Positions 22,443-63,615 of a stretch of DNA of 64,000 nucleotides are shown here, one piece after another. Within the stretch, counting starts at the first letter, position 1; each line of letters opens with the position of its first letter. A model generated the notes under the pieces. It did no database searches. It worked only from the letters and a program-made list of their open reading frames with translations, and was not told where the DNA came from. A program made the position numbers and the translations under genes. Origin of the DNA: a virus; the IMG/VR virus record IMGVR_UViG_3300045988_076504, positions 32,001-96,000 of that record; one strand, 5' to 3'.

Positions 22443-22444
22443 TT

Positions 22445-46252: not shown

Positions 46253-46296
46253 AAAAAAAGAGGGTGGTAGTTATTTGCTAACTATCACCCTGTTTT
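46253..46296. terminator. Bidirectional intrinsic terminator at the convergent module junction
   Basis: 12-bp stem AGGGTGGTAGTT (46261-46272) / AACTATCACCCT (46280-46291) with one G-U pair. It is flanked by A8 upstream (a U-tract for the - strand) and GTTTT downstream. It overlaps the last codons of the - strand gene ending at 46271. Confidence 0.7.
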
Positions 46297-46771
46297 CGTA
46301 TATACGATCAAACTCTTCGATAGTTGGAGCATAGTCGTCTTCTGGTACCGACGATCTATCAACTCCAAATATTTGCATAGAAGAATTTAGGAGACGATTG
46401 TTCAGGTCGTCATCATCGAGTCCCCAAAATTGCAAAACACGGGTTGCTCGATTTCCTGTAGGTACTCTTCCTTTAAACAAATATCTTGAAAAGCTATCGA
46501 AAAGTTGAAGTGTATATACCGTATATGGTTTATTGTTTACTCTTATATGTTTTACAGAACGTAGCGATTTTTGTTCTCGGATTTTCATCCATCTAATCTT
46601 ACTTTCTCTTGTATCGACAGTATCATCATACATTAAGAATAAACAATATTCTAAGCTGGGTCTGTTTTGATCGTATATATACGCATCGACAAACCCAGCT
46701 TGTTTTGTAATATCATCCTTAGTTATTGTATCAACCGCGAAAGGAATGATACATTTTATCTGTGTAGACAT
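46271..46771 (-). CDS. Hypothetical protein
   Basis: Intact 166-aa ORF under the standard code. TAA stop. Confidence 0.75.
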   Translation of the reverse strand: MSTQIKCIIPFAVDTITKDDITKQAGFVDAYIYDQNRPSLEYCLFLMYDDTVDTRESKIRWMKIREQKSLRSVKHIRVNNKPYTVYTLQLFDSFSRYLFKGRVPTGNRATRVLQFWGLDDDDLNNRLLNSSMQIFGVDRSSVPEDDYAPTIEEFDRIYENRVIVSK

Positions 46772-46776
46772 AAGAT

Positions 46777-47751
46777 TCAGAGATTCAAATATTCTATACC
46801 GTTGTTTTCATAATAACCGCGAGTATGAGTCCAGTCACCTCTATTTCTATACCATACTATGTCAAACATAGCAGATTCAATGTCATCGAGACGAGATTCA
46901 AGTTGTTCCGGAACAAACTCAAATACCCTCACCTCGTTATCAGACACTGTATCAATAGCAATTATGTAGACCCCAAATGTCCACCCTTTACTATCCTGGT
47001 GTAGTTCGTTTTGTATGTACCATTCTGCTGCCAGTTGATAAAACATAAACTGTCTGAAATAGTCATATTGCTCAACACTTTTTTCAAAATTGTGTATATG
47101 CACAGTTGTTTTTAAATCCATTATTGTACATTCTTTCTTTTCAATATCAAACTTAACACTGTCAAGAAGAGATTTACATTGCACAACACCATTCATAGCT
47201 CTGTATGTCCAGTTTATATGAAATTCATGATGTGCATCAGGATCATCTAACAAAGGTTTTGCTGCCACATGTTTATCTATATTCTGCTTAATAGACCATA
47301 ACAACTTCATATCGTATTGTGTGATATATGTGTGTTCTGTATCTTTAAGGGATTTGATATAAGAATTCAACGTAGAGGCTATTTCCTTTGCTTCTGAGAG
47401 CATTTTAGCTTCAGACTTACCAACTATACTATATACCTTCTTATAAGCATCTAGAAGGGCTAAATCAGGCTCTATTTCAGTAGTGCTGACCAACTCTTGA
47501 CAGAATTTCTCCTGTTGCTGAGATTTAGGTTTCTGCATACCTGAAACTCGATAATGTTTTTTAAACTCGTCTGGTTGCAAAAGCCACATATGAATCATGG
47601 TTCCTTTGCTCATAGCTCGCGATTCTTCGTCTGGAATTTCACCAGACATCTTTTTATAAAAATAGGATGGTCCTCCATAAAGGAGCCATCCTATCGCTGT
47701 ATTGTTTATACGAGATTTATCCTCGTAATAAGGAATTTCAACCGACATCAT
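46777..47751 (-). CDS. PD-(D/E)XK (RecB/Cas4-like) nuclease
   Basis: 324-aa ORF. Has CTIMDLKTT (the D/ExK motif) followed by QYDYFRQFMFYQLAAEWY (QxxxY-like), and GTMIHMWLL upstream. Confidence 0.75.
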   Translation of the reverse strand: MMSVEIPYYEDKSRINNTAIGWLLYGGPSYFYKKMSGEIPDEESRAMSKGTMIHMWLLQPDEFKKHYRVSGMQKPKSQQQEKFCQELVSTTEIEPDLALLDAYKKVYSIVGKSEAKMLSEAKEIASTLNSYIKSLKDTEHTYITQYDMKLLWSIKQNIDKHVAAKPLLDDPDAHHEFHINWTYRAMNGVVQCKSLLDSVKFDIEKKECTIMDLKTTVHIHNFEKSVEQYDYFRQFMFYQLAAEWYIQNELHQDSKGWTFGVYIIAIDTVSDNEVRVFEFVPEQLESRLDDIESAMFDIVWYRNRGDWTHTRGYYENNGIEYLNL

Positions 47752-47980
47752 ATCTCAAATATCCTTTTATTTGTGAACATTTTTCAGAATCCGTATACTC
47801 TGCATTATCTATTATGTCTCTTACTTTTCTGTACAAGTTATGCCATTTATAGTAATGTATAGCTTTGGTTCTTTCTTCTAGCTTATGGTTCAATACTATT
47901 TCAATGATTGTACCAGTCACAACTGACATCAGTATAATACAAGTACAAACAATAATAAGAGTTATTTCTAATTCACTCAT
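47738..47980 (-). CDS. Small membrane protein
   Basis: 80-aa ORF with N-terminal TM segment LIIVCTCIILMSVVTGTII. Its stop overlaps the next gene's start. Confidence 0.6.
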   Translation of the reverse strand: MSELEITLIIVCTCIILMSVVTGTIIEIVLNHKLEERTKAIHYYKWHNLYRKVRDIIDNAEYTDSEKCSQIKGYLRYDVG

Positions 47981-48131
47981 TGCATTCGTCGTATAATAAA
48001 TGATCCAATTCTTGAATTTTACGTATAAGATTCATAGCTGTTTCTGGGTCTCTATTTAATATAGCTGAATAAACCTGTTGTTTAGTGTCATTCAGCTCTT
48101 TCCTTATTCGTCCTTCTTCAAGAATGTCCAT
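47973..48131 (-). CDS. Small hypothetical protein (52 aa)
   Basis: Not in the track because it is under 60 aa. Reads ATG 48131-48129 ... TGA 47975-47973 (MDILEEGRIRKELNDTKQQ...). It is overlap-coupled to both neighbouring genes. Confidence 0.4.
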   Translation of the reverse strand: MDILEEGRIRKELNDTKQQVYSAILNRDPETAMNLIRKIQELDHLLYDECNE

Positions 48132-48504
48132 TGCATTTAATGTCTTTTATCATTTCGTCAACTTGTTTGTGATTTCTCACAAGATAACATCGTTTTTTAC
48201 TTCGATGTTTTTTCAAATAATATTTAAAGAGTTTATATCTTAAAGGAAAAGAATCTCCCATAAGACCTTTACACTCCACAATAAAGTCTTTACCTATAAA
48301 ATCCGGCAAATATGTTATGGGGCGTATTTTTTCTCCTAAATAATCAAATTTTGGTAGTAGTGTAAAATGCTTTGGCTCATATTTAACAGGAATACCTGCT
48401 TCCATAAAAGCTTCATAAGTATAACATTCTAGTTTAGATCTAAAATGTAATCCATACTTATCGACCTTTGTCGCATTTCTCACTCTTCCTTTAGAGGTTC
48501 CCAT
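48118..48504 (-). CDS. DUF1064-like PD-(D/E)XK endonuclease (resolvase-like)
   Basis: FRSKLECYTYEAF ... YLPDFIGKDFIVECKG matches the remembered S-x-x-E ... D-F ... E-x-K pattern of DUF1064 phage nucleases. Confidence 0.65.
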   Translation of the reverse strand: MGTSKGRVRNATKVDKYGLHFRSKLECYTYEAFMEAGIPVKYEPKHFTLLPKFDYLGEKIRPITYLPDFIGKDFIVECKGLMGDSFPLRYKLFKYYLKKHRSKKRCYLVRNHKQVDEMIKDIKCNGHS

Positions 48505-49474
48505 AACGTTGTAATTCTTTATTTAACCATTGTTTTACATCTTCGTAAGAATTATATTCTACCGCATCCGAAATATCTTTTGCTTTAAACTTCTTATTAA
48601 TAAAGAACGCATCAAAATGATATTTTCTACTGTAATCTCTAGCTTTTTTTACTCCTGTAGCATCTCTATCATACAGAATCAATATTGTTTTCCATTTAGT
48701 CTTAAGCTTATCCAATATTTCATCCGGAATAAATGTTGTTTCACTAGACGCAGCAATAGCATCATATCCCATCTCATATAGAGTCATTACATCCTTAAGA
48801 GATTTTGTAATGATGAGAAGATTACCTCCTTCTTGAGGTATTTCAGCAAGCCCCTGAACGTCATAATTTGTCAGATTAGAACGCCATTTAGTATACTTAG
48901 AAGCCAAAGGTCTATAAATCTTAAAATGATCATATACCTTATATGCATACATAGGACAGGTTTCTTTGTAGACTCCTCGGACGGTTCCATTACAAAGAAA
49001 ATACTTAATACTATAAACACGATATCTTTCAAGAGTTTTCAAAGATATATGAAACCTGCTCCAATATTGTAAATCGATGTTACTAAACGGTTGTCTAGCT
49101 ATACCTATTACAGTATTGTGAGCAGGCTCATATGTCTTCTTATAATCAACCCTTTTACTTGTAGGATTCTGCTTTCGTAGAATCCTAAGAAGTTCTTTTT
49201 CTAATTCTTCCTTTGAATGTATATTACAAATAGTTTTTACAAACGTTATTGCATTTCCACCTATTCCATTACCATGGTCTTTAAAAAACAAACGTCCCTC
49301 ATGTCCTACAAAGACTGCAAATGATGGATTTTTATCATCGTTTCGCAAAGGACTATTCATGAGTTTGTTTATTTTAAATTGACCAAGATAATATGAGTAG
49401 ATATCATAATCGTTCAACAGTTCTAATATATCTTGTAGAACTGTGTCCGTAATTGCTTTTTTTGTACTATACAT
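48491..49474 (-). CDS. DNA primase (Toprim domain)
   Basis: 327 aa. Segment LLIITKSLKDVMTLYEMGYDAIAASSETT...ILILYDRDATGVKKA shows a Toprim-like E ... DxD pattern. N-terminal region NPSFAVF..FKDHGNGIGGNAITFV. Confidence 0.8.
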   Translation of the reverse strand: MYSTKKAITDTVLQDILELLNDYDIYSYYLGQFKINKLMNSPLRNDDKNPSFAVFVGHEGRLFFKDHGNGIGGNAITFVKTICNIHSKEELEKELLRILRKQNPTSKRVDYKKTYEPAHNTVIGIARQPFSNIDLQYWSRFHISLKTLERYRVYSIKYFLCNGTVRGVYKETCPMYAYKVYDHFKIYRPLASKYTKWRSNLTNYDVQGLAEIPQEGGNLLIITKSLKDVMTLYEMGYDAIAASSETTFIPDEILDKLKTKWKTILILYDRDATGVKKARDYSRKYHFDAFFINKKFKAKDISDAVEYNSYEDVKQWLNKELQRYGNL

Positions 49475-49530
49475 GACTTAAAAGTTCTTAGTTAGTAGTA
49501 AGAATGAGAGGACTCGAACCTCTTGATTAT

Positions 49531-49602
49531 CCATATTGACAAGATTCGAACTTGCATACGTCAGCTTAATAGCTGATGCCTTACCTGTCGAGCCACAATA
49601 TT
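49531..49602 (-). ncRNA. tRNA-like element with a non-canonical anticodon loop
   Basis: The - strand sequence folds as a 72-nt cloverleaf. Acceptor AATATTG/CAATATG has a 1-72 mismatch. D arm is TG-GCT-CGACAGGTAA-GGC. T arm is GCAAG-TTCGAAT-CTTGT. The anticodon hairpin is TCAGC-TATTAA-GCTGA, giving a 6-nt loop, or an 8-nt loop CTATTAAG if the closing C-G pair opens. No standard 7-nt loop is possible. Confidence 0.4.
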
Positions 49603-49828
49603 GTATATATAAACATTCTTCCCCTGATATAACCACATGCATCAGAACACATCCAAGATACGCTTGGAAACAGGGCTAGACTTACATCGATTAGAAAGCC
49701 TGTGTGTTACGTTGCTCCTCACGTCGACTTTATAGAGCTTCCTATGGAGTGGTAGGAGGTTACGATCCTCCCAAAGTTCATATTTACCACTCTTAGTTGA
49801 CTGGAGTCAACACTCCACCAGATCTGCA

Positions 49829-50443
49829 TTAGAAGGGCAGATCATCCTTTTTCTCTTCTACAATAGTATTGTCCGGGGTACTGTGTACATCATTTTCTGA
49901 TACAGCAAGCGGATCGACAGACTTTTCATCGTCTACCTTGAATTCTGGTCTGACAGTTTTGTCACGACCTGTTAATACTATTTGAGTTTCTTTTACGTCC
50001 ATTGGTTCTACAAATGTACCATATGCTGATACACGAATAAAACCTTTGTTATCGTACGTTGTTTTAAGACGTAGAAGCTTCTTTCCTCCAATAACTGAAT
50101 CAAGCTTAGATTTAACCCAATTTATCATGTCAGAGAATGTATTAAGTTCTACATCTTCGATAGAGTCGAAATAACATTTGAGAATCTGAAGCATTCGTCC
50201 AAACTGCTGATTATCACGACGTTGTAGATCTTCGTCAGTTTTAATCCACTGGTTCTTCTCGTTCTTCCACTCTGTGAGAGAAGCTGTTGCTCCATTAGCA
50301 TCCTCAAATGTTATCTCCAAGTAATCACGACCGGTTGGAGATTTCATGACATTTACTTCTTTAAGAGTTACATTGTCATTAATTCCGGCATTCATATATT
50401 TATTTGATGAACTTTCAAATACGGCTGTTTTAGTACTAAACAT
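49829..50443 (-). CDS. Single-stranded DNA-binding protein
   Basis: 204 aa. The acidic C-terminus ends ...EEKKDDLPF, matching the bacterial SSB tip motif DDDIPF. Sits in the replication module. Confidence 0.65.
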   Translation of the reverse strand: MFSTKTAVFESSSNKYMNAGINDNVTLKEVNVMKSPTGRDYLEITFEDANGATASLTEWKNEKNQWIKTDEDLQRRDNQQFGRMLQILKCYFDSIEDVELNTFSDMINWVKSKLDSVIGGKKLLRLKTTYDNKGFIRVSAYGTFVEPMDVKETQIVLTGRDKTVRPEFKVDDEKSVDPLAVSENDVHSTPDNTIVEEKKDDLPF

Positions 50444-50451
50444 ATCTTCTA

Positions 50452-51201
50452 TTAGTTTTCTGATTTATAAATTCTGTCCCAATAAGTTGTGATAGTTCCA
50501 TCTTCATTACCAGTAGCAATGATGATGTCTTTACCTCTCAAGTGAGGTGCTCTAGCTTCTTTGATGGTTCCATCTCCACCTTTGAAGCTTATATGAGTCT
50601 CGTTACCTTTTCTATAAACATATCCTACAGCATCAGCTTCACCACATACAATAGAACCAAGTTTTCCAACAAGGTCTAGTGCCATTTGACTAAGCTCTTC
50701 GCCATTCTGTTCTATTTGAACATCTTTAACATGTCCAATCAGAACAAACTCGTCACAAAGACTTTTAAACATATCTAAAACTTTGCGTACAGCTTGTCTT
50801 AGATACATATATCCAGAACCGTTTGGCAAAGTGCGTACATCGTCTCCTTTGTAGTTCTTGCCCATTGGTGTTTGGCAATATAAAGTCTTCGCATACGACA
50901 AACACATCTCCTCTAATCGAGTAGCGTTGTCTATAGTAATACGTCTATAAAAATTATGTCCGGCTTCTGAGTTTTTAGCTCGGATAGCTTGTGCAATTTC
51001 TCCTAAATCTTTAACACTTCTAGCTTGTACAGCCATAGCGTCTATAAACTGGGACCCACCTTCCAAATCTATAATTAGATTACTAGAAAGTTGTGCTAAT
51101 GCACTAGTCTTTCCTGCTTTGGGACGACCGTACAAGATTAAAAATTTCGGATTAGTTGAAACTGCTGGTATTGGTTGTGTAGGTAATATTAAACCGCTCA
51201 T
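50452..51201 (-). CDS. AAA_24/Sak4-like RecA-fold ATPase
   Basis: Walker A ILYGRPKAGKTS followed by IIDLEGG. 249 aa, typical of phage AAA_24 ATPases. Confidence 0.75.
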   Translation of the reverse strand: MSGLILPTQPIPAVSTNPKFLILYGRPKAGKTSALAQLSSNLIIDLEGGSQFIDAMAVQARSVKDLGEIAQAIRAKNSEAGHNFYRRITIDNATRLEEMCLSYAKTLYCQTPMGKNYKGDDVRTLPNGSGYMYLRQAVRKVLDMFKSLCDEFVLIGHVKDVQIEQNGEELSQMALDLVGKLGSIVCGEADAVGYVYRKGNETHISFKGGDGTIKEARAPHLRGKDIIIATGNEDGTITTYWDRIYKSEN

Positions 51202-51240
51202 GTATCTATGTATCTTATTTGTTAGTTCGTTTGTTTACAA

Positions 51241-51696
51241 TTACGCTGCATGCTTAATATCGATGTAAATATCGATGATGCGCTTACGAGTATCCTCAGA
51301 AAGAAGATCGTAATAAGCCTTTGTAAAGTTGTTAAGAGGTATCAAATCATAACCGATCTGAATCTCGTCAGAGAACATCTTTACTGGCGTTCCGTCGGAA
51401 AGCTTGAAGTCATAAGAAGGCTTCTCACGCTTGTAATCATAAATAAACTTAATAGCATCGAAAATGTCTCCATAATCGATACTGTCATATGTATACGTTT
51501 TCTTCGGCTTGCGAGCGATATCAATGTTAATATTAATATTCTTTGCACGCTTCGGAGTCTCCTCAAAGTCTGCAAACCATGGATTATTCTTCTTTATATT
51601 AGAAGATATAATGTCACTAAGAATCTCAGAATAAGTGTTACTGGGATTAATATTCATCTTTGCAGTATTGTCGATCTTAAATGTATACTTTTTCAT
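51241..51696 (-). CDS. Hypothetical protein
   Basis: Intact 151-aa ORF with a TAA stop. The overlapping + strand ORF 51250-51720 is judged a shadow. Confidence 0.65.
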   Translation of the reverse strand: MKKYTFKIDNTAKMNINPSNTYSEILSDIISSNIKKNNPWFADFEETPKRAKNININIDIARKPKKTYTYDSIDYGDIFDAIKFIYDYKREKPSYDFKLSDGTPVKMFSDEIQIGYDLIPLNNFTKAYYDLLSEDTRKRIIDIYIDIKHAA

Positions 51697-51716
51697 AATT
51701 TTCAGCCTTTAAATTG

Positions 51717-52667
51717 TTAATTATTATCTGATACAACTTCAGACTCTATTAGGTTGTTAAAAGCAAGGTCGTTTTCAAATTCGAGAATACAAGGTTTACC
51801 GGCATCTCTATTTTTCAAGATGTGAATATAAACCTTGTTACAAGTAGGTAAACGATTGGGACCGTACTCTTGTATACCTAATATCTCAGGTCTGTGTATA
51901 ACAAGCACATAATCAGATGCTTGAAATATTGAATCAGACGATGATAAATCGCTTCTCATCGGATAATGTGAAGCAGGGTTGTTAATCCTTTCAGGCTCTT
52001 CAATTCTTCTATTCATCTGTGATAATTGTATTACAGATGTCAATGGTAGTTTTTTAGTTCTAATAAAAACTTCTTGTAAAGCACTTAAAGTTTCTATAGC
52101 ACTACCAATACGTTTAGTCAACAATGTATGATCGTACATGATCACAAAATGTTTATTTTGACCTTTAACGTATTTATTATAAAAGTATTGAATTGTAGTA
52201 TCTATTTGTTCTGGTGTACCAGGATCATCTACGAAGTAGATAGGGTAATTCCTGATTTGATTGGAAACATTAATGACTTGTTCGAATGTAGTGTCATCAA
52301 GGTCCTCTTGAGAACTATACAAATAAGAAGTCGTTTTCCGTAACTTATTAGAAAGCGTTCTTCCGATCTGCCTAAATCCAACCATCTCTAATGAGAACAC
52401 TAAAACAATGATATTTGCTTTAGGATTAATATCAATTAAATCAGTTGCGATAAGGTTAGCAAATGAACTCTTACCGCTTCCAGAAATACCGGCAATTGTA
52501 TATACACAATTTGGTTCAATACCGCCCATACAACACATATTCAACTTCTTCCATCTTGTAGCCAATGAATTTATATCGTGGTTCTTACGAGCCGTAATAT
52601 AGTTGACAGCTTCATCTGTAACTACAGAAATAGGTCGAATCTTTAGGTTAGAATAATTCTGTTCCAT
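51717..52667 (-). CDS. DnaB-family replicative helicase (C-terminal ATPase domain only)
   Basis: Walker A GISGSGKSS, FSLEM, DHTLL (Walker B region) and LSQMNR (compare the DnaB LSQLNR motif). Confidence 0.85.
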   Translation of the reverse strand: MEQNYSNLKIRPISVVTDEAVNYITARKNHDINSLATRWKKLNMCCMGGIEPNCVYTIAGISGSGKSSFANLIATDLIDINPKANIIVLVFSLEMVGFRQIGRTLSNKLRKTTSYLYSSQEDLDDTTFEQVINVSNQIRNYPIYFVDDPGTPEQIDTTIQYFYNKYVKGQNKHFVIMYDHTLLTKRIGSAIETLSALQEVFIRTKKLPLTSVIQLSQMNRRIEEPERINNPASHYPMRSDLSSSDSIFQASDYVLVIHRPEILGIQEYGPNRLPTCNKVYIHILKNRDAGKPCILEFENDLAFNNLIESEVVSDNN

Positions 52668-53217
52668 AACTATGTTGTATGTTTTGCTCGGTATTGTTCA
52701 TTTCTTCGTCTGAGGCTTCCCATTGTCTATCTTGCAACCACCGCCACATTGTTTTCATATAACCCATACTTCCACTTTTCATCTTTTTATCGATTTCAAA
52801 CTGTAAGCATTTGTTAATATGTTCACACATGGCGTTATTACCTCCCGTAAGTATATTATAAAGGTTGCGACATTTGTTTTTATTTGTCCTTAAGAAAGCT
52901 TTACTTCCGTCAGAACGTAAGACATATATAGGATACATTTCATAAAACAAGTCAAATTGGTCTTTAGGAGGTTCCATAAAGACTTTAAGTTTATGACTTG
53001 CTTCATATAGTATAGATTTACTTCTCTCCATCGAAGTAACCAAACCCTTGTCGATTAAGTATAGTATTTCGTCGTCACGCATAAGGCTGACTAACTTGCG
53101 AACGTCTTGATCATATGTACTTTGATTCTTATTCAATACCATACTAAGGAATACTAACTGATTTAAATTGATTTTTTCTGGAAGTTCCAGAAGTTTAGTA
53201 TCTAATTCCACTATCAT
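52648..53217 (-). CDS. Hypothetical replication-module protein
   Basis: Intact 189-aa ORF between the polymerase and the helicase. Overlaps the helicase start. Confidence 0.65.
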   Translation of the reverse strand: MIVELDTKLLELPEKINLNQLVFLSMVLNKNQSTYDQDVRKLVSLMRDDEILYLIDKGLVTSMERSKSILYEASHKLKVFMEPPKDQFDLFYEMYPIYVLRSDGSKAFLRTNKNKCRNLYNILTGGNNAMCEHINKCLQFEIDKKMKSGSMGYMKTMWRWLQDRQWEASDEEMNNTEQNIQHSYGTELF

Positions 53218-53233
53218 CTCTTATACTCTTTGG

Positions 53234-55141
53234 TTAACAAGATTGGAATAAATCTAGCTGTCTACATTCCAGCTGATTTACTATTTTTCTTGCCTCACTA
53301 ATATAGTAAGGGTAGTTAATTTTTCTTTTTTCCACCGGTTTGTCATCCAGTTTGTTTAGAATTGTAACACCGCTTTTCTTCAACAAGTTCGAATACTTAA
53401 ATGGTGTTTTAGATTCATCAACTGTGTACAGATAACAACCGTCTGTACTGGCATACCAACGATTTATACGTTGAATATATTTATCATTATACTCAACTTT
53501 AAATTTCTTATCAACACGCTGTGACATTAGAAATTTATAAATGTCGGTACAGTTTTTGACAGAATCCTCTATAGGAATGTTGTACACAAAGTAGTTTATA
53601 ACAGATTCTGGGATAATGGTCGGTGCTAACCCTTTACCCAATACAGGCTCTGTTATAAACATACCTTTTTTTTCTATCAGTTTTGGATCTCTAGATTGAG
53701 AGAATCCGTCAATAACACCAAAATAATCATTGACAGCGAACTGATAAAACGCTTCATAGCTATCTGCTTCGAAAGAGAGTTTTGTTAATTGCTCAAGTTT
53801 TGCTACCGATTCCATTATAGCATCTTTGTACGCCTTTTTAGCAATAAACATCACACCGTCTGTGTTTACTTGTACAATCTCACAAGAATGCTCCAGAAGT
53901 ATATCTGCAAGCATTAGTAGAATTAATTGCCCGTTTATTCTAATCTTAAACACACTAAATGGATCGTACATCCAACTAGTCTCTTGCTGCATTTTTCCTG
54001 TGACAGAATTAAGAACAAGCTTTAGCGCTAGATTCTTATGTTTCTGTCCGCTATGCTTGGCTTGTATTCTCTCATGATAAATCTGAGTATATACATCCAG
54101 GCCTGCTTTACCTAAGTGCCTAGGAAACCACCCGTAGCGCACAATGAAGGACGGATACATAGAAGCAACATCAAGGTGCCCTAAGTATTCATCTTCTTTA
54201 GGAACGTATATTCTAGGGTCGTTTAGCGAATGTATTCCGCCAACACCTATCGAATACCGTACATTTGAGACAACAAACTTGTTCTCGTAGTTTTTTTCTC
54301 CAGGCCTTTTTATAGAAGATACTACTTGTTTTTTCATATCTTCAAGGGCTTCCTGGAATTTTGGATTTTTGTATTTTATAAATGGTAATATAACATCTTT
54401 CAAAGGAATGTTGTCCATTGGAGATCGCATTTGTTCTAGTTGTCTTTTGTTTATGTGTAATTCTTCACAAACTTTTTTAGCTAGCAATGTTTCTCCAAAC
54501 TTAACACTATCCATTGAAAGTGCATTAAATCCATATTCTTTCTCTATAAACAATCGTAAATCAATGTCTCCTTTTTCGACTAGCTGTGCAAATAATGCAC
54601 AAGTTGATTCCACATCGTTTATATTGTAACTGATCATTTCGTCAATTTTATCTTTCGGTAAAAATGAATTAAAATCACCATTGTATTCTTGCACGTTGTT
54701 GTACTTCATAGTGATTTGCATGGATTTTAATCCTACTCTGAGCTTAGAACTAAACATCATTGTAAGTAAATCCATAGATTCGAAATAATTAGCGTATTTC
54801 CATCGTTTAATCCTATCGATATTTCCGTCTTCCGATATTATCAACGTTTGTGAAAGATTAAATAGCGATTTTGTTATATCATATATGCTTTTATGCAACA
54901 TAATGTCAACATAATCTATGATATAATTTATAATAACATCATCATAATGTTTGTTATTATAACCACATAAGAGATAGTTTTTATTAGTAAAGAAAGCTAC
55001 TAATTGTTCTATCTGATTTATCCTTTCGGATATTTCAAACTTATATAGTTTCTCGTTATCTGTATCTTTTACAACACAATGAAAAACATTAGGAAAAACT
55101 TCAATATCGTAGATCATAACTGTTTTGTTGTGTATTAGCAT
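53234..55141 (-). CDS. Family B DNA polymerase
   Basis: Exo I YDIEVFPN, Exo II GYNNKHYDD, Exo III YNINDVEST. Polymerase motif A DVASMYPS, motif B KLVLNSVTGK, motif C VNTDGV. Confidence 0.9.
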   Translation of the reverse strand: MLIHNKTVMIYDIEVFPNVFHCVVKDTDNEKLYKFEISERINQIEQLVAFFTNKNYLLCGYNNKHYDDVIINYIIDYVDIMLHKSIYDITKSLFNLSQTLIISEDGNIDRIKRWKYANYFESMDLLTMMFSSKLRVGLKSMQITMKYNNVQEYNGDFNSFLPKDKIDEMISYNINDVESTCALFAQLVEKGDIDLRLFIEKEYGFNALSMDSVKFGETLLAKKVCEELHINKRQLEQMRSPMDNIPLKDVILPFIKYKNPKFQEALEDMKKQVVSSIKRPGEKNYENKFVVSNVRYSIGVGGIHSLNDPRIYVPKEDEYLGHLDVASMYPSFIVRYGWFPRHLGKAGLDVYTQIYHERIQAKHSGQKHKNLALKLVLNSVTGKMQQETSWMYDPFSVFKIRINGQLILLMLADILLEHSCEIVQVNTDGVMFIAKKAYKDAIMESVAKLEQLTKLSFEADSYEAFYQFAVNDYFGVIDGFSQSRDPKLIEKKGMFITEPVLGKGLAPTIIPESVINYFVYNIPIEDSVKNCTDIYKFLMSQRVDKKFKVEYNDKYIQRINRWYASTDGCYLYTVDESKTPFKYSNLLKKSGVTILNKLDDKPVEKRKINYPYYISEARKIVNQLECRQLDLFQSC

Positions 55142-55168
55142 GATTCTATGATTCTTATTAATAATGTT

Positions 55169-55262
55169 CCCTATTCAGGACTTGAACCTGATGTCTATCC
55201 ACCGCGAATAATCAAACAAATACTGATACTAAGTTGCCAAAAAGACTGGTTATAGAATAGGG
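55169..55262 (-). ncRNA. tRNA-like T-arm/acceptor element (not a canonical tRNA)
   Basis: The - strand has TCAGG-TTCAAGT-CCTGA followed by ATAGGG, which pairs with CCCTAT 94 nt upstream. I could not fold the 65 nt in between into D and anticodon arms. Confidence 0.3.
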
Positions 55263-55288
55263 TTCCAACCGCGAGATTGGCTTAGGTG

Positions 55289-56110
55289 TTAGATCCACAT
55301 ACCAACACTGGTACCGTTATGACAAAAGACTTTAAGGCAGATGAGGTCATCACCATGGCGATTTGTAGCTTTCTCTTTTAATTTACTAGCGAGCTCCTTA
55401 ATGCGTTTGTCTTTTGTGGTATAATATGAAGGATGTGAATCTATTATATGTTTAGGGTCGTACATATGACCAAATAGTTTCTCATTTATAACAGTTCCGT
55501 CGTCACTATAAAATCTTACAGTGACTATACAACTGTCTTTCGGAGGATATAATGCTGATAAATCCTCACGTATCATCTCTCGTTTTTTGTCTCTAAGGTC
55601 GAGAAAACCTTGTATCAATGTTCTGGGGAATAAATCCTGTTTCAATTCCTCAAATGTAGGCTTGTGTTTACGTTCCCACCTGTCTACTTTATGATTTTCG
55701 AGCATGTGTAAACGTTCAGCATATCCCAATTTAGTAGGTTTGTTTTTCCAAATAGCTTTGATTTCGTCTTTTGTAAGATTCCAAGGTAATTTAAAATTTA
55801 TATCTTTACGAGGTGTAAATACACCGTTGTTTATTCGAGTATAATCTCTAAATACTTTGTTCTTTGCCAACCTGTATCGTATAAATGCACGTATGGCGGA
55901 TGGTGAATTATTCGGTCGTATCTTCTTCAGATACTGCAATCCGTACTTTTTCAGCAGGTCGTACATACCAAGCCTTTCAACATCTATAACGAGTTTTTTA
56001 GCCCTTTCGGTTTTACAAAAGTTGTCAAATTTATTTACTATTTCTGTATTTTTATTTACTTTATCGAGATTCTTTTCTATTGCTGTTTTCTTTTCTTCTT
56101 TCTTTTTCAT
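55289..56110 (-). CDS. Hypothetical protein
   Basis: Intact 273-aa ORF with a TAA stop. Confidence 0.7.
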   Translation of the reverse strand: MKKKEEKKTAIEKNLDKVNKNTEIVNKFDNFCKTERAKKLVIDVERLGMYDLLKKYGLQYLKKIRPNNSPSAIRAFIRYRLAKNKVFRDYTRINNGVFTPRKDINFKLPWNLTKDEIKAIWKNKPTKLGYAERLHMLENHKVDRWERKHKPTFEELKQDLFPRTLIQGFLDLRDKKREMIREDLSALYPPKDSCIVTVRFYSDDGTVINEKLFGHMYDPKHIIDSHPSYYTTKDKRIKELASKLKEKATNRHGDDLICLKVFCHNGTSVGMWI

Positions 56111-56308
56111 ATTGATTATGCTTTTAAGGGGTTATAAAATTGATTCTAAGGCACTTCTCGTGCGTTCTAACGCATTTTGACGTTCGTTGTGAATAACTTA
56201 TCACAAAATGGTTGAAAGTGCCTTAAAATTGTTTATTTTAAGTGTTGCCATAACAGGACCCGACCCTGTGCATCTTAGTGCTGACCATATTCATAAGGCA
56301 TTTTATTT

Positions 56309-56863
56309 TTATGCTATCTTATAGCGATTTATATCATCTATATCAGATGTCTCAAGCTCTGCAGTATCGTTAAATTTAGCAATATCTGCGTCAAGCTTGT
56401 TTATTTCGAGTTGCAGCTTCTTCTTAATAGAAGCAATCTTCGCTGATGTGAAAATCTCAATCTTTCCTGTACCTTTTATACCAGCTTTAGCCTTAGTAGC
56501 AGGATTAATTGTACTCTTCTTGAGAATCTCCTCCCAATGAGCAAGTTGCTCCTTCTTCTCGCATGCAGCATAAATTGTATAATAATGTGTCTTCTTAGCC
56601 TCTTCAAAATCGAACTTCTTGATACCATTATTAATGGCATTCAACATAAGTTTAATCTTAATGAGAGTATCTGACATTTGTGTAATCTCATTATACAACT
56701 GTGTTAGGTCAAAACCTGAACCCATTCCGGCAGTTTTTGCCTTCTTGCTCATTACGTTCTCTGAACGTATAATACGCCAATATTTGGTTTTAGTCTTACA
56801 AATGTTATCACGAGCAATAATAATATCCTTTGAGCTTAATTTCATTGATTTGTTCTTATTCAT
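56309..56863 (-). CDS. Hypothetical protein
   Basis: Intact 184-aa ORF with a TAA stop. Confidence 0.7.
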   Translation of the reverse strand: MNKNKSMKLSSKDIIIARDNICKTKTKYWRIIRSENVMSKKAKTAGMGSGFDLTQLYNEITQMSDTLIKIKLMLNAINNGIKKFDFEEAKKTHYYTIYAACEKKEQLAHWEEILKKSTINPATKAKAGIKGTGKIEIFTSAKIASIKKKLQLEINKLDADIAKFNDTAELETSDIDDINRYKIA

Positions 56864-56966
56864 ACTAGATTTGATTTAAATTAAACATGTTAATATGAAT
56901 TTGAAAAATCGTTTACCTAGCGCCATGTGTGGACTTGCACCACCTGTTATCTATAATACAACATGG

Positions 56967-56998
56967 CAAAACCCTCACTATTCTCACGAACCGTGAGG
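56967..56998 (-). terminator. Possible intrinsic terminator downstream of tRNA-Leu
   Basis: - strand CCTCAC ... GTGAGG stem, with an alternative CTCAC-GGTTC-GTGAG hairpin, followed by GTTTTG. Confidence 0.4.
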
Positions 56999-57054
56999 TA
57001 AATAAAATAATAAAATGAAAACAAAATTAAAACACTCTTACGATTAAAATTTTG

Positions 57055-57138
57055 TACCTCCAGCGGGACTCGAACCCGCACGTCACATGGGACAACAGAT
57101 TTTAAGTCTGTAGCGGCTGCCAATTACGCCATGAAGGT
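57055..57138 (-). tRNA. tRNA-Leu (anticodon UAA, reads UUA), class II with long variable arm
   Basis: - strand: ACCTTCA TG GCGT-AATTGGCAG-CCGC T ACAGA-CTTAAAA-TCTGT TGTCCCATGTGACGT GCGGG-TTCGAGT-CCCGC TGGAGGT A. The acceptor is 7 bp with one G-U pair. CCA is not encoded. Confidence 0.85.
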
Positions 57139-57233
57139 AACGAAGCTGGGATATTAACATGTCCCAACTTTAAGTGAAATATATAGTAATCAATCAAACT
57201 TGTAATTAAACTCCTGTTTAACCTACAAAGAGA

Positions 57234-57761
57234 CTACTCAAAGAAATCCACACCTTTGACTCCAACTCTGATTTCGCACAGAGGATCGCCTGATCCCGGC
57301 AAGCGTGCGATTTTAATACCATCCTTGGATTCAATCTTAATGTGTTTATCTATTTTATCACTAACAGAGAAACCCGTTGTATTTAACGGGCTTTTGACTC
57401 CATACCTTGCGGCATCAAATAAACGATCTACTACAGTGTCATATTCTTCTCGCATTACAGCATTACGTATTACCTCCTCACTCAAGCCTTTGAGTATCAC
57501 ATCGTTGATATTACGTTCCTGTCCTGCAAGAGCTGCAACTGTTTTAATAGCGAAGTCTGCAAAAGAAATAGTCTTTTCATCTCCTATAAGATGATTCCAC
57601 CAAAGACACCCTGTCTTTCCAAATGTGATAGAACCATCTTCATTAATGGATACGCGACTATATAATTCTTTCTTAGACTCGTCAATCAAATTCCGTCTGA
57701 TTGCCGGATCCAAGAATAGAATTTGTATTTGCAGTTTACTTCTCTGACTAATCTTTTTCAT
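57234..57761 (-). CDS. Hypothetical early protein (terminates with TAG)
   Basis: Intact 175-aa ORF. The stop codon is TAG (+ strand CTA at 57234-57236). Codon usage is GC-richer than most of the window. Confidence 0.75.
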   Translation of the reverse strand: MKKISQRSKLQIQILFLDPAIRRNLIDESKKELYSRVSINEDGSITFGKTGCLWWNHLIGDEKTISFADFAIKTVAALAGQERNINDVILKGLSEEVIRNAVMREEYDTVVDRLFDAARYGVKSPLNTTGFSVSDKIDKHIKIESKDGIKIARLPGSGDPLCEIRVGVKGVDFFE

Positions 57762-58369
57762 TAATCAACAGTTACATTTACATGCACCTCGCTCTTCTTC
57801 TGGTCGAGCTGGCGATAATAATCGTTTACTCCGGATATATTCTTGTCGAATGTATCCTGAATCATCTTACGCATCTTCTCAAGATCCTTCGTGAGCTCGT
57901 CGATACGACGCATCTCAGTGGCGTTAGCAGGATTCAATGCCTCAGCAAGCTTCTTTGCATTTGCAAAATAAGTTACTGTAAAATCCTTCTTGTTAAGAGC
58001 GTCTGTCACAGTGTCTGTAGTGACATCCTTTGTGAACTTCTCACTGTCGATTGGACAACGAACCTCTACAGATTCGCCTGAATCATCGACACGACCCCTG
58101 TTGATAACCACAACATTGGTTCCGTCTACATCCTTATCCAAATCGAGACCGATAATGTCGATAGGTACTATCTTATATCGGAATGGTGTGCGGTTTGTTA
58201 CTAATCCGTGATTCTCATTTGCATCGCGGAGCTTCTTGTTAAAATCAAGGTCACATGGTACCTTAATAGCCTTAAAGATTCGCTTACCGTAAAGCGATCC
58301 AAAATTGCTGATATTTACTCTGTTGTCTTCTACAAGTCTTACATTGATGTTTAATGTTTCGTTATTCAT
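57761..58369 (-). CDS. Hypothetical early protein
   Basis: Intact 202-aa ORF. Its TAA overlaps the downstream ATG by 1 nt. GC-richer codon usage. Confidence 0.75.
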   Translation of the reverse strand: MNNETLNINVRLVEDNRVNISNFGSLYGKRIFKAIKVPCDLDFNKKLRDANENHGLVTNRTPFRYKIVPIDIIGLDLDKDVDGTNVVVINRGRVDDSGESVEVRCPIDSEKFTKDVTTDTVTDALNKKDFTVTYFANAKKLAEALNPANATEMRRIDELTKDLEKMRKMIQDTFDKNISGVNDYYRQLDQKKSEVHVNVTVD

Positions 58370-60370
58370 AATAATTTATCCTTTTTGATATCGTGTTTGA
58401 TTACACCCACGATAAATTATGTAAAAATTCTCCTCTCAGCTCAGAGAAAGCTATAAATGCATCGTTTGATGCTACTCAAGATTTATTTTATACAGTGTCA
58501 AGTTTCTTTATGACCGCTTTATAAGCGTAAGTCACTATATGTGGATTCCAACGATAGGAATAGCTTAGCCTCATATAGATATATACGACAGACCCGGATC
58601 TCTCACGGAAAGCTTTGAATGACCGGTGTACATCATGTACTAAATCTTATAAGTAAAACTAAATTTTTTGAAATAAAGTTTATATTCATCATCCGTCCAA
58701 CGCTCTAATGTTTCTGGAATCGTGGAGGGTTCATTGGCTGAGATGATGAATATTACCCACAAAAATAAAAAGTGAGAATATCTTCCTTGTGCATTTCCTA
58801 AAACTAAGAAAACATTCTCCGATGCTGTACAGTCTTACGATACTGTTTAGGCGCATCTGCCACTATTCTAAGTACTGTGTAGAATAATCAATACACGTTT
58901 CATTATCGAACAGTCTAGCCTTCAGGGGGTATCTACGACTCTACGGCGGTTATTCGATGGAAAACCTTGCTAAAAACCTTCTTCTATTTATAGTGCACGA
59001 ATATTGGGGATTTCAGCCCCGTACATATGTATATGTTATCACCCACATATTATTTTCACGCCCTACAGAGACAGTGTAGACCGTGGTGGGTTAAGTCTCC
59101 CACAGGCATACGCTTTACGCACTGCTAGTATGATTTCTCATTTTAATAATATGCTGCCTACTATATTTTCTGTACTGATTCTACCTTTCGCTTGACGCAT
59201 ACACTTGCGGATGTATACTTTAGGCTGGTTATCATAACGGTTGGCACTCGAACTTTCAGACCTCGTTACTCCTTATTTACAACATAAGTTTTTCACTATC
59301 TGAGGACATCGATTTTTGTTAAACATGTTACTTTAATACTTAATATGTAGTTTTGTTCCTACACCATAATATCAAAATTTTTCATATACATACTTATGCT
59401 CATAATATATGCACTATTATTATGTACAATAACTATCATTGTTCCTTTCGGTTCTTTTTCTCTGTATAGAGAATAATAGATATTATATATTATATATGAA
59501 CATGTGTATATTATTATTTGATATTTTTATTGGCATTGAGGTAATTGATTACAACTGGAATGCTGCTCTTATTTACTCAATGTATGTTTTTAGAAAGCCC
59601 CTCAAAAACATTAAAACGGCTGGTTTGGCTGTCAAGTAGCCACCTATGATGTCATATTTCATATAATACTAAGATTGCTAATGTCTTGTACTATAATCCT
59701 GTCTTCAGTCCTATGAACGCCGACTCTAGAGGCTGTGCAGCTGCCATACGCACCTAGTCATTTTACTTTTATATACCGCATAAACGACCAAAGCCTGGCG
59801 GTCTTATCTCATTATAAGCGAATAGTTTTCTCAGCCTCAACTCTTTACTGCATCCCTGGACCCTTCTTTGGCTCAAAAGGCTGCTGAATCGAACAGCACA
59901 GATTTATCCCTGGACACTACGTTTACTGCGTAGCTTGGTCTAACTGACAATAATATGATCTGACTCACATATTACCTACCAAGTCCTTCTCTATTCTATC
60001 TTATACCCTAATAAAATTTTCATCCCTTCATACACAGTTTGGACCTGTGGAACACTAGATTAAGCAATGATGTATCACATAGAGGTTGGAAGTCTATGTG
60101 TTCAGCACTTGTATACGGTTACCAATGTAATCCACATCAAAATTACAAAGAGTATTAGCTACCGGTTCATTTTGCTCTTCTTGAGACTTACGCGTCTTCC
60201 TAAGTCGTTATTCGCCAGACGGTTCTCAATAACGCTGTTGGGGTTGATACAACGCTCTCCCCACTTACATATTACTTTTCACATAATATGCATTTCATCC
60301 TACCTTTTGAGTTATCTCGCCTTTTGAGAAGGTTAACATATTCTCGGATCAAGTTTATTTCGTACACGAG
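58370..60370. other. 2.0-kb ORF-free, hairpin-dense region (candidate large ncRNA(s) and/or origin/regulatory region)
   Basis: No ORF over 86 aa in any frame, and stops of all three kinds are frequent, so TAG read-through does not rescue it. Examples of structure: a 12-bp helix 58682-58693/58742-58753, 7-bp stems 58864-58870/58880-58886 and 60076-60082/60094-60100, and the repeat ATCCCTGGAC at 59852 and 59906. An AT-rich core lies at about 59300-59560. Confidence 0.6.
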
Positions 60371-60823
60371 CTAATGAGACTCGTTATATGTACTGACGGA
60401 GGTGTCTTCGACTGAATGATCGTAATCATTCTCTCCCGGAGTGAATATCGTTTCGCAGTCTATGTCTTCAGGGCTAGCTTTCCTTACAACATATTTAGCT
60501 TGAGAATCACTGCAGGTTTGCTCCTCACGAACCTTTGATGAAGCAATATACAATATAGGTACATACAACGTATCATGTACTGCATATGGTACTTTCACCA
60601 CTTTTACATTCTCTTTATGGTTGCACACTTGTGATGTTGTCTCAGGATTGACAGGATCACGTTTCATATGACTCAGCTGGAGATCATATGGCAATTGCCC
60701 TATTACAGGCATCACTGGTGCAGCTTGTATAGTTACACCAGGATCTGCTCTATTGTTTATTCCTACTAATAGGCCGTATAGTAGTAACATTGAGCATGAA
60801 ATAATTGTTGTTAACTTTTTCAT
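60371..60823 (-). CDS. Secreted/membrane-anchored hypothetical protein (terminates with TAG)
   Basis: 150 aa. Signal-peptide-like N-terminus MKKLTTIISCSMLLLYGLLVG. The stop codon is TAG (+ strand CTA at 60371-60373). Confidence 0.7.
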   Translation of the reverse strand: MKKLTTIISCSMLLLYGLLVGINNRADPGVTIQAAPVMPVIGQLPYDLQLSHMKRDPVNPETTSQVCNHKENVKVVKVPYAVHDTLYVPILYIASSKVREEQTCSDSQAKYVVRKASPEDIDCETIFTPGENDYDHSVEDTSVSTYNESH

Positions 60824-61179
60824 TTTGATAATGTGTTAAGCGATAGCTTCTTTCTTTTCATGGTCTACTATTACAGTAATACCATTATGTCTAGGTACCA
60901 TCATCGATACGTCAAGATTATGTGTATAACCTCGGGCGTCTAAATTGTTGATGACTTTTCTAAGCTTTTTCTACTACCGATATGAATTTCTGACATTTTG
61001 ATAATGTTTTTAATTGTTTTAGGAGTTGCGAATGCGTCTTCCAAATTTTGGAATTCCACCTTCATCTAGTTCGACATGCAAAAGATTCTTTATAGATGTA
61101 GCTACTCGTCTACAAGAATCTTTTACATCGTCGACAACTAGTTGAATATGTCTTTTTTTACGAATCTTTCGTAACTCCT

Positions 61180-62613
61180 TTATGCGTTTTTTGAGTCTTC
61201 TTTTTTGGCTTCAGCAGCAGCTTTTGCTTCTGCCTCACGCATCTCCTTAATCTCCTCTGTAGTATACGCTACAAGATCGTGGAGATTAATCTCGGCATAG
61301 GTCTCATCCCGGTCAGCTAACGGCTTGAACATGTTACATATAATGCCAGCATGCTGTACAATATTGTAATCCATGTTCTTAAATCCGCCACGAGCAGAGT
61401 TCGGATAATACTGATCCTTAATGCGGCCATAAATCTTAATGGCTCCAGGATCCTTATCCTTGTCCATCTTCTCAATGAGAGAGCTGACGATCTCTGGATC
61501 CGGATTCGTTACATAGCCCAAGATGTCCTTATAGTGCTGGATAGAGTTCTTGTACTTCTCAGCTACATCCTTATAGTCTTTTGCTTTCTTATCAAGAGCG
61601 TCAAGATTCTTTTGCTCGTCAGCAATAGTATTGTTAGCTACAAGATAAATGATCGCCTTAACGGCGTCAGCAATTGACTGTTCGTCCCATACAGGTTGTC
61701 CTGTCTCAGGGTCTGTAAGAGACTTTCTGAGAATACAGAATGAAGAAATCGGACTCTTGTCGAAAGACGCCATGGTGATAAGACCACGTCCGATACCGTG
61801 AAGAAGAAATGTAGGCTTGACGTATGAGAATGCATCCATCAACCACTGGTCAACAGTATAATCGTCATACTTCAGCTTTGCTTCAGCAGAGTTCTCCGCT
61901 TTATCTGCCATTGTCATGCGATAGGTACGCATGAAATCAACAACACTTACAAGTGTGTTCTTGATATTGGTCTTCTTAGGACCGACAATCAACAGATACT
62001 GAAGAGCCTTTTTGAGATCGTCCTCACTCATAGCTGCCACCTTTACAGGGTCAAGCTCTGGCTGCTCGTCCTCAATCGCATGTTCTTCTGCAAGCTTCTC
62101 CTTTGCCGCCTTGGACACCTTTACCTCTTTGCTGTCAACAGTCACATTACCGTTCTCGTCAACCGGCAACGCCTTAACGTTCGGCAATGTGATACCCATA
62201 TCCTTTGCAGCAACAAGAAGCTGAGGATACATTGTATGGTTAAGAACTGCTGAGAAGGTAGAATTACCATATACTGCCTCATCTGCAATTGCTGCGATAA
62301 CGCCGGCTGCAACGATAGCATTCGCTCCCTCTCTTACCTCTAGCGAGAACTTGCGTTCTGCATCTGGGTCTTTGCGAAAGATATCGTCAGCAAGACACAA
62401 CAGATCTACGCGATGATTTGCATCGAGAGACGACTGGGTACCACCTACAAGATTCTTTGCGTTTATCTGTGAAGGATTTACTTGATCCTTCTTAGGAGGT
62501 TCTACTGTTGTCTCGACTGTTTCTACTACAGCTGCTTCTGCTGGAGCTGCTGCTGGTTTATTTACTTTAGTTGTCTTCTTTTGAGTTTTGTTATTTTTAG
62601 TTTTAGCTGCCAT
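61180..62613 (-). CDS. Hypothetical protein with Lys/Ala-rich termini
   Basis: Intact 477-aa ORF with GC-richer, host-like codon usage. N-terminus MAAKTKNNKTQKKTTKVNKPAAAPAEAA and C-terminus EAEAKAAAEAKKEDSKNA. Confidence 0.8.
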   Translation of the reverse strand: MAAKTKNNKTQKKTTKVNKPAAAPAEAAVVETVETTVEPPKKDQVNPSQINAKNLVGGTQSSLDANHRVDLLCLADDIFRKDPDAERKFSLEVREGANAIVAAGVIAAIADEAVYGNSTFSAVLNHTMYPQLLVAAKDMGITLPNVKALPVDENGNVTVDSKEVKVSKAAKEKLAEEHAIEDEQPELDPVKVAAMSEDDLKKALQYLLIVGPKKTNIKNTLVSVVDFMRTYRMTMADKAENSAEAKLKYDDYTVDQWLMDAFSYVKPTFLLHGIGRGLITMASFDKSPISSFCILRKSLTDPETGQPVWDEQSIADAVKAIIYLVANNTIADEQKNLDALDKKAKDYKDVAEKYKNSIQHYKDILGYVTNPDPEIVSSLIEKMDKDKDPGAIKIYGRIKDQYYPNSARGGFKNMDYNIVQHAGIICNMFKPLADRDETYAEINLHDLVAYTTEEIKEMREAEAKAAAEAKKEDSKNA

Positions 62614-62684
62614 AATTTTGATAATTATTTAAAACGTTAATATATGTTAATTTATAGTTGATGGTCTTGGAATCGTTTTGAAAT

Positions 62685-63610: not shown

Positions 63611-63615
63611 ACAAT

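Follow-up and report, generated by a model that had tools for sequence, protein, structure and literature searches.

Why would a crAss-like phage of the gut keep tRNA-like structures, one nested inside another, in the non-coding gap directly before its primase gene? The gap occupies positions 49475–49828 of a 64,000-nucleotide stretch of the IMG/VR record IMGVR_UViG_3300045988_076504 (the whole stretch is termed the window below) and lies between the open reading frames (ORFs) 48491–49474 and 49829–50443, in a phage of the Suoliviridae/Oafivirinae group. In the initial annotation, made from the sequence alone, it was placed between primase and single-stranded DNA-binding protein (SSB) genes, and an unconventional suppressor tRNA or a tRNA-mimicking regulator was suggested. 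The downstream gene does encode a DnaG-type primase. The SSB label of the upstream gene is unconfirmed: its 204-residue product has no PHROG match and one weak, sub-threshold Pfam match, and relatives annotate it as hypothetical. On balance, we lean towards reading the gap as a set of t-element-like cutting signals for host RNase P and RNase Z, which would punctuate the replication-gene transcript.

All helices initially described were found in the minus-strand sequence: the outer helix AAGAATG (49620–49614) with CATTCTT (49506–49500), just after the T arm AGAGG-TTCGAGT-CCTCT (49523–49507); the upstream 8 bp helix (49792–49785 with 49754–49747) around GGAGG-ATCGTAA-CCTCC (49771–49755); and the hairpins at 49802–49817 and 49821–49843. 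Single-sequence statistics gave weak support. The minimum free energy (MFE) fold of the whole gap has a z-score of −1.42, and a permissive search for T arms with a matching acceptor complement returned six frames against 3.3 ± 1.8 per shuffled window, which is too unspecific to serve as proof by itself; a perfect 7 bp frame occurred about 0.25 times per shuffled window. The case for non-chance structure therefore rests on comparison with relatives. In GenBank the closest records, at about 70% DNA identity, are cr130_1, cr131_1, cr272_1 and Bohxovirus; close relatives (loci with L numbers) were taken from IMG/VR using the primase protein and DNA patterns.

The unit nearest the primase is an outer tRNA-like frame with a 7 bp acceptor stem, a 5 bp T stem and a UUCGAGU loop, and with no functional anticodon arm of its own. 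The MFE folds of the window, L050, L005 and L008 all contain the acceptor stem and the T arm. The window and L050 share AAGAATG...AGAGG-TTCGAGT-CCTCT-CATTCTT, L005 keeps AGAATG/CATTCT, and L007 and L008 keep AGAATG/CATTCT together with a compensated T stem (GAAAG/CTTTC), a TTCGATT loop and an interior consisting of a 19 nt hairpin. The 3′ part of the frame is 100% identical in L005 and L050; between the window and L005 the flanking minihelix and the outer T arm are likewise 100% identical, with the interior at 82%. To judge from this pattern, the acceptor stem and the T arm are the only parts of the outer frame under selection. A covariation analysis across related phages had been proposed with the initial annotation as a check, and it bears the outer frame out: pairing is kept by compensatory changes and the interior is variable.

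Placement at the primase leader is a property of the family. A fixed-rule frame was defined as a T-arm hairpin followed directly by a 7 nt strand that has an upstream complement and ends 1 nt before the leader; it was found in 37 of 44 distinct primase upstream regions, against 3.1 ± 1.5 (maximum 7) in shuffles. About 25 distinct acceptor sequences occur across the family (a hand count from the frame listing). The leader reads AC..TAACTAAGAACTTWTAAGTC-ATG, or CTAACTTATAAGTT-ATG in more distant relatives, and where it is kept, one nucleotide separates its start from the 3′ acceptor strand of a tRNA or tRNA-like element; in L007 and L008 the same frame is followed by a different leader. The leader motif TAAYTAAGAA is not enriched in the window (30 matches, 30.6 expected). 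The element before the leader varies: it is a true tRNA-Leu(taa) in L002/cr131_1, a tRNA-Lys(ctt) in L061, an odd tRNA with A33 or a 5 nt or enlarged irregular anticodon loop in L001, L054, L057 and L068, a minihelix with an interior of 11 nt (L003, L011 and L012) or 17 nt (L022 and others), and the 90 nt nested frame in the window. At only about ten of these loci does ARAGORN report a tRNA abutting the leader, and most of the mimics escape tRNA finders. Of the two possibilities raised initially, the tRNA-mimicking regulator thus survives in altered form, as an acceptor/T-arm frame conserved at the primase leader family-wide and not as the inner cloverleaf. Elsewhere, an odd tRNA (L057:6601–6679 and L058:7040–7120; ARAGORN 'Pro agg') has an enlarged anticodon arm that differs between these near-identical phages (CTTTGTC versus ATTTAGT), which could be a UUG to UUA change.

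The arrangement recurs before the DNA polymerase gene (PHROG 1252, E = 1.5e-136), where CCCTAT (55257–55262), a 65 nt interior, TCAGG-TTCAAGT-CCTGA and ATAGGG (55169–55174) form a second cassette. Its acceptor in L074 is CCCTG/CAGGG, a compensatory change, and the interior is hypervariable. At the homologous site, cr130_1 and L058 carry GATAGAG...GTGAG-TTCGACT-CTCAC-CTCTATC with a similar leader behind; between these genera and the window both stems are wholly different, yet still complementary.

Upstream of the outer frame lies a 126 nt structured RNA, here called the module (helices H1, H3, H4 and H5). Single-stranded stretches of it that never vary include AACGUAAC, AUGUAAGU and the loop GCAUGUGG. 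In alignment A4 (16 module sequences, 15 of them distinct, from three sub-lineages; 133 columns) the four-helix model pairs 93.8% of cells, against 29–43% with slid partners, and ten of 26 pairs show compensatory change on both sides. Because U–G wobbles occur on the minus strand only, the RNA is assigned to that strand. The covariance model R1 scores the window module at 135.6 bits and finds exactly one copy per module-bearing genome; no further or distant copy was found in other relatives searched (about 1 Mb of related loci). No Rfam 15 family matches positions 49300–50000 at E ≤ 10, and the module pattern is absent from 185,579 bacterial and archaeal species genomes. The module is thus a candidate new structured RNA, backed by covariation. 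A protein-coding role was rejected, with stops in all six frames across the module in L001 and L050. Also rejected were a closing helix ACACA/UGUGU around H3–H4, which is broken by variants in L006, L050, L054 and L071, and a pseudoknot between the module 5′ end and the H5 loop, for which L054 and L071 share CAUAU with differing loops and no consistent covariation.

The discriminator of a tRNA or tRNA-like element immediately precedes the module in 16 of 16 sequences. Three contexts occur: tRNA-Leu(taa) (L001, L054, L065, L068 and L070), a tRNA-like frame (L050, L057, L058 and L069; the AGCTCTG...CAGAGCT frame has a 140 nt interior) and, in the window clade, minihelix 1. In most genomes a tRNA-like element also follows it. 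Minihelix 1 combines the helix (G)AGTGGTA/TACCACT(C) with GGAGG-ATCGTAA-CCTCC in tRNA acceptor/T-arm geometry, without a D arm or an anticodon arm. It forms in the MFE fold (z = −2.9), carries compensatory changes in relatives (AATGGTA/TACCATT in L007, L008 and L073; GGGAG/CTCCC in L006) and occupies the slot that in other relatives holds tRNA-Leu(taa) or another tRNA-like frame before the module. Two structured sites lie further upstream. The hairpin at the end of the 204-residue gene reads GATCTAC/GTAGATC in L006, L008 and L073, a compensatory change from G–C to A–U. The alternative hairpins are TGGAGT-GTTG-ACTCCA (49802–49817) and GTTGAC-TCCA-GTCAAC (49796–49811), and the L006 and L008 variants are compatible with the second. 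Coordinates are collected in Table 1.

Table 1. Features of the primase-proximal gap and of the DNA polymerase cassette.
Feature	Position	Strand	Remarks
Hairpin of 7 bp, GATCTGC-CCTTCTAAT-GCAGATC	49821–49843	−	Stop codon of the 204-residue gene in the loop
Two overlapping alternative hairpins behind conserved TGGTGGAG	49796–49817	−	From sequence
Minihelix 1	49747–49792	−	Helix of 7–8 bp, 13 nt 5′ linker, hairpin stacked on 3′ strand
126 nt structured RNA (module), helices H1, H3, H4, H5	49621–49746	−	Covariation; best-conserved stretch of the gap
Outer tRNA-like frame	49500–49620	−	Acceptor AAGAATG/CATTCTT, T arm 49507–49523, 90 nt interior
Inner tRNA-derived cloverleaf	49531–49602	−	Rfam tRNA match; anticodon-less arm; 1–72 A·G mismatch
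Discriminator-position A 49499 and primase leader CTACTAACTAAGAACTTTTAAGTC to ATG 49474	49475–49499	−	Leader conserved across relatives
Second cassette before DNA polymerase gene (ATG 55141)	55142–55262	−	Frame 55169–55262 and leader ACATTATTAATAAGAATCATAGAATC

The acceptor/T-arm minihelix is the part of a tRNA that is recognised by RNase P, RNase Z and the CCA-adding enzyme. Together with one further nucleotide, it is also the sole feature common to all elements before the primase and polymerase leaders, and for these two reasons the gap is read as a punctuated precursor. In the mechanism we propose, the gap would be a 'tRNA slot' that encodes no protein, probably part of the minus-strand transcript of the replication genes and holding three RNA units: the minihelix, the 126 nt RNA and the tRNA-like frame. 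The acceptor/T-arm minihelices may act like plant-mitochondrial t-elements, host RNase P cutting on the 5′ side of each element and RNase Z, or an equivalent 3′ activity, cutting after the discriminator. Such cuts would separate the upstream mRNA, free the 126 nt RNA with defined ends and give the primase mRNA a fixed short leader; the second cassette would play the same part for the mRNA of DNA polymerase. It is observed that the structures exist, covary, hold a fixed position at the leader and occur family-wide; from this we infer the cleavage, the enzymes and a role for the 126 nt RNA. Support comes from the family-wide placement, in which the identity of the element varies and the stems are compensated, from the second cassette with its compensated stems, from the regular start of the module behind a discriminator and from the minus-strand wobbles. 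Support also comes from the lack of promoter- or terminator-like signals in the gap: no σ70 promoter or terminator scored above background there, and of the two 'terminators' reported, one is helix H4 and the other the outer T arm. A mini tRNA-like element directly behind a permuted transfer-messenger RNA (tmRNA) in the same genome is a further point in favour. This element (L075:7709–7763) consists of AGAGAAG, 17 nt, AGGAG-TTCGAAT-CTCCT and CTTCTCT. The tmRNA before it is circularly permuted (L075:7431–7661, equivalent to about 64953–65183 and thus just past the window end; Rfam RF04321, 57.5 bits, gathering threshold 47), and an annotated tmRNA with the tag DNYNVVDYTHVA is present in cr130_1. 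The gap itself gave no ARAGORN or Rfam tmRNA match, and coding across it was rejected because ORF 49478–49642 is not conserved.

Several points weigh against this interpretation. Cleavage by RNase P and RNase Z is deduced from shape. About seven of the 44 genomes did not score as having the frame; among them L015 and L004/L020 (ARAGORN tRNA-Val) seemingly lack only the T-loop pattern, L030/L036 have a non-T-loop hairpin at the frame site and L042 differs. The frame scan selects for pairing, so that its support lies in the shuffle control. Minihelix 1 has no canonical T-loop (AUCGUAA, or AUCAUAA in L006), and L065 has no tRNA-like element after the module. A leader palindrome, AACTTATAAGTT, is present in many relatives and could be a DNA operator and not an RNA feature. 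The inner acceptor and anticodon stems of L005 carry compensatory changes, which suggests that the interior is not wholly free.

Those inner stems of L005 would also fit elements that are left uncut, either staying on mRNA 5′ ends or accumulating as stable anticodon-less tRNA mimics, which might stabilise mRNA, adjust its translation or, as decoys or sponges, occupy tRNA-binding enzymes of the host or defence nucleases. The recurrence of tRNA-like genes with abnormal loops (the inner cloverleaf, a tRNA-Gln paralogue in L075, the 8 nt loop tRNA of L084–L087 and Lys-like genes with A33) points the same way. We nevertheless regard this as unlikely: these elements are without the anticodon loop that anticodon nucleases recognise, and interiors of 11–90 nt are less suited to a decoy for a specific protein than to a minimal handle for processing. 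An origin as decaying tRNA genes in an insertion hot spot, with no function of their own, would explain why genuine tRNAs (Gln, Leu, Cys, Val and Lys) fill the slot in relatives, why the inner cloverleaf is degrading in L005 and why the content is mosaic between lineages. This is improbable given that acceptor and T arm are compensated while interiors decay, that leader spacing is fixed in far more genomes than the shuffles predict, that a homologous cassette stands at the polymerase gene and that the module covaries strongly. Equally improbable is a self-cleaving module that cuts its own 5′ end and matures the 3′ end of the preceding tRNA in the style of theta ribozymes, which are like those of hepatitis delta virus (HDV). 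Consistent with it are the start of the module right behind the discriminator, its many invariant junction and loop nucleotides, a hammerhead-like core next to tRNA-Gln in the same genome and the occupation of this very position by theta ribozymes in gut phages (Kienbeck et al., 2024; PMC10879173). However, no Rfam ribozyme family matches at E ≤ 10, and module nucleotides 2–5 vary freely, without compensation, between sequences that agree everywhere else, which excludes a P1 of the HDV type built from the module 5′ end; on these two grounds an HDV-like or theta fold was rejected, as was a hammerhead core in H5 (CUGAUGC in the window), which is not conserved in relatives. A C behind the discriminator is also encoded in other tRNAs of these phages, so that the first C of the module is probably position 74 of the preceding element. 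Because the module is kept in the window clade behind a mere minihelix, tRNA maturation cannot be its sole role. Finally, inverted repeats acting at the DNA level, as a replication origin or as protein-binding palindromes, are suggested by the position inside the replication gene block and by the leader palindrome, but we give this very little credence: the GC skew turns only near 46 kb, at the convergent gene boundary, with no skew feature at the gap, and G–U wobbles with canonical T-loops (TTCGANT) indicate a minus-strand RNA. A host origin or attachment site was likewise rejected, the outer 3′ half being absent, like the module pattern, from the bacterial and archaeal genomes searched and hence not a copy of a host tRNA 3′ end serving for attachment.

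Least probable of all is the inner cloverleaf as an unconventional suppressor, or as a quadruplet decoder (AUUA in an 8 nt loop), for TAG recoding. The premise of recoding is borne out: with TAG read through, the cover by stop-to-stop ORFs of at least 150 residues rises from 58% to 92%, in the plus-strand late genes (1–46215) only, and a frame of 4276 codons opens at 22436–35266 on that strand. Reading through TGA leaves the cover nearly unchanged, and the minus-strand replication genes are unrecoded. It also favours a decoder here that no tRNA(CUA) was found in the 64 kb window and about 17 kb beyond (about 8.6 and 8.5 kb past its two ends, where a tRNA-Gln(UUG) was found), but about 19 kb of the 100,119 bp ENA contig lies outside this inspected DNA. 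Recoding of TAG or TGA and suppressor tRNAs have been described for crAss-like phages, some recoded genomes among them having no detectable suppressor (Yutin et al., 2021; PMC7886860), a further point on this side. The cloverleaf matches Rfam RF00005 at 36.6 bits, above the gathering threshold of 29 (E = 5e-4 for the whole window); it is the sole tRNA-family match in the gap and, with tRNA-Leu(UAA) at 57054–57138, one of two in the window. Its description as near-canonical holds for this match and not for default ARAGORN, which sees the tRNA-Leu and misses the cloverleaf because, in the Rfam alignment, the anticodon loop is 1 nt short and the 1–72 pair and one D-stem pair are mismatched. With lowered thresholds, a check foreseen in the initial annotation, ARAGORN calls it tRNA-??? 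with an 8 nt loop and the 4-base anticodon 'atta', which speaks for the quadruplet version.

The anticodon arm itself decides otherwise. TCAGC-TATTAA-GCTGA has a 6 nt loop, UAUUAA, and its MFE fold is a 6 bp stem with an AUUA tetraloop; a 7 nt loop with U33 and a purine at position 37 is absent. In L005 the C–G pair closing the stem has become U–A and another stem pair a wobble, with UAUUAA unchanged. This covariation indicates that the closing pair truly pairs and, hence, that the loop has at most 6 nt. The CUA triplet previously seen in an opened 8 nt loop, and rightly described as out of the canonical register, needs that covarying pair to open; it would occupy positions 32–34, not 34–36, and it is lost in L005 (UUAUUAAA). 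The 1–72 mismatch and the lack of an encoded CCA also count against decoding. The cloverleaf was found only in the window, L050/L061 and L005/L053/L074; the L005 copy (98% primase identity) has a damaged T arm and gives no tRNA match at E ≤ 0.5, and the 19 nt hairpin replaces the cloverleaf in L007/L008. The genomes of L005 and L008 (L053 and L055, respectively) are TAG-recoded like the window, as are L054, L070 and L080; in all five the cloverleaf is degraded or absent, and its presence among relatives does not track recoding. Canonical tRNA(CTA) genes stand next to the dUTPase gene in cr130_1 (L081:20369–20442) and in the same slot in L083, L089 and L090, a region outside the window; cr130_1 and L083 also carry the 126 nt module elsewhere. 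The suppressor proposed initially is therefore abandoned: the inner cloverleaf does not decode but is carried along in an interior free to vary and is, to judge from its sequence, a decaying anticodon-less tRNA derivative. This removes a tempting false lead for recoded phages that seemingly lack a suppressor tRNA.

Two other tRNAs with abnormal loops were recorded. In L084–L087 (about 3296–3368), which are TAG-recoded relatives, a tRNA with the 8 nt anticodon loop UAUAAACG (ARAGORN anticodon 'taaa', four bases) lies in the slot of the cr130_1/L083 tRNA(CTA). At L075:1439–1507 a paralogue of tRNA-Gln(UUG), scored by Rfam at 56 bits and missed by ARAGORN, has a 4 nt CUUA loop in place of the anticodon loop, and is a second anticodon-less tRNA mimic in the genome of the window. 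A motif resembling a type III hammerhead and complete in its core (CUGAUGAG...GACGAAAC; 26.6 bits, below gathering) lies at L075:601–654, about 80 nt upstream of tRNA-Gln(UUG). A hairpin with the conserved loop GGTTYGTGARAATAG occurs at 56978–56992 (minus strand) and at L075:589, 710, 859 and 15622, always next to tRNA genes (four exact copies in 21 kb, 0.1 expected). A second conserved GC-rich block (CCTATGGCAGCGGGCTGCGCAGACCTACCGTAAAGACAATGAACCGACGGACGCATAGG) without an Rfam match is found at L005:2270–2400 and in L068, just upstream of another odd tRNA. In L059 (1017–1211) and L071 the tRNA-Leu(UAA) is split by a group I intron with an HNH endonuclease ORF (Rfam RF00028, 51.4 bits; run for L059 only). 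By our reading of the junction sequences, the intron would lie between U34 and A35, the classic tRNA-Leu intron position.

The replication block on the minus strand (46271–64000) encodes a DnaB-like helicase, an AAA_24 ATPase, the 204-residue protein, primase and others; about 2 kb of it (58370–60370) has no ORF above 86 residues and no Rfam match at E ≤ 1. When 49500–49828 was compared with L050, and with L005 too, the nested tRNA-like cassette was 96–100% identical to that of L050 and the 126 nt modules only 79%, mosaic content that suggests cassette exchange between lineages.

The crAss-like phages are the most abundant human gut viruses and their gene expression is largely obscure. If the punctuated-precursor reading is true, these phages use host tRNA-processing enzymes to cut replication transcripts, a strategy known from organelles and for which we found no description in phage operons. 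The module adds a candidate new structured RNA of 126 nt, with covariation and no Rfam match. A broader proposal, for now tentative and in our estimate doubtful, is that anticodon-less mimics are obligatory punctuation of primase and polymerase mRNAs throughout the Suoliviridae crAss-like phages and that the excised 126 nt RNA would represent a new functional class, either a regulator of replication genes or a ribozyme of tRNA 3′ ends.

Comparison with known systems places the gap among several of them. In plant mitochondria, RNase P and RNase Z cleave tRNA-like structures known as t-elements and thereby generate the 5′ and 3′ ends of mRNAs (Forner et al., 2007; PMC1920247). The phage elements resemble them in having an acceptor stem and T arm, in forming no functional tRNA and in lying beside protein-coding genes; they differ in belonging to a phage operon, in their 11–90 nt interiors, which may hold a whole cloverleaf, and in their fixed spacing to one conserved leader. 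Cleavage has been shown for t-elements, whereas the phage elements are known here from sequence and predicted fold. The suppressor tRNA(CUA) of crAss-like phages (Yutin et al., 2021; PMC7886860) shares with the inner cloverleaf the phage order, the recoding and tRNA-derived sequence, but the cloverleaf has no 7 nt loop, no CUA at 34–36 and no conservation among recoded sisters. Theta ribozymes lie at tRNA 3′ ends in recoded gut phages and are described there as 'minimal' (Kienbeck et al., 2024; PMC10879173). The module is alike in being a structured RNA that starts at a tRNA 3′ end in such phages and unlike in lacking an HDV-like P1 and an Rfam ribozyme match and in also following non-tRNA minihelices. 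Theta ribozymes are about 50–60 nt long, so that the module is about twice their length. In the tRNA-like domain of tmRNA, too, an acceptor and T arm enclose a large insert that replaces the D and anticodon arms; the outer frame, however, has no G3–U70, tag reading frame or pseudoknots and no ARAGORN or Rfam tmRNA match. In mascRNA/MALAT1, the tRNA-like units of murine herpesvirus 68 and the P1/P7 C4 precursor, a tRNA-like fold recruits RNase P and RNase Z and so defines the ends of a neighbouring non-coding RNA. Those systems are eukaryotic, herpesviral or a single P1 antisense RNA, and none is a family-wide cassette placed before replication genes. Full-text literature searches turned up no account of a Crassvirales replication-gene leader joined to a tRNA-like element. 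In tRNA punctuation, as in animal mitochondria and in the tRNA–mRNA co-transcripts of the Escherichia coli thrU–tufB operon, tRNAs within polycistronic transcripts are excised and the flanking RNAs are thereby separated. The phage arrangement shares this layout but differs in that most of its elements are not usable tRNAs, so that excision would be their only role.

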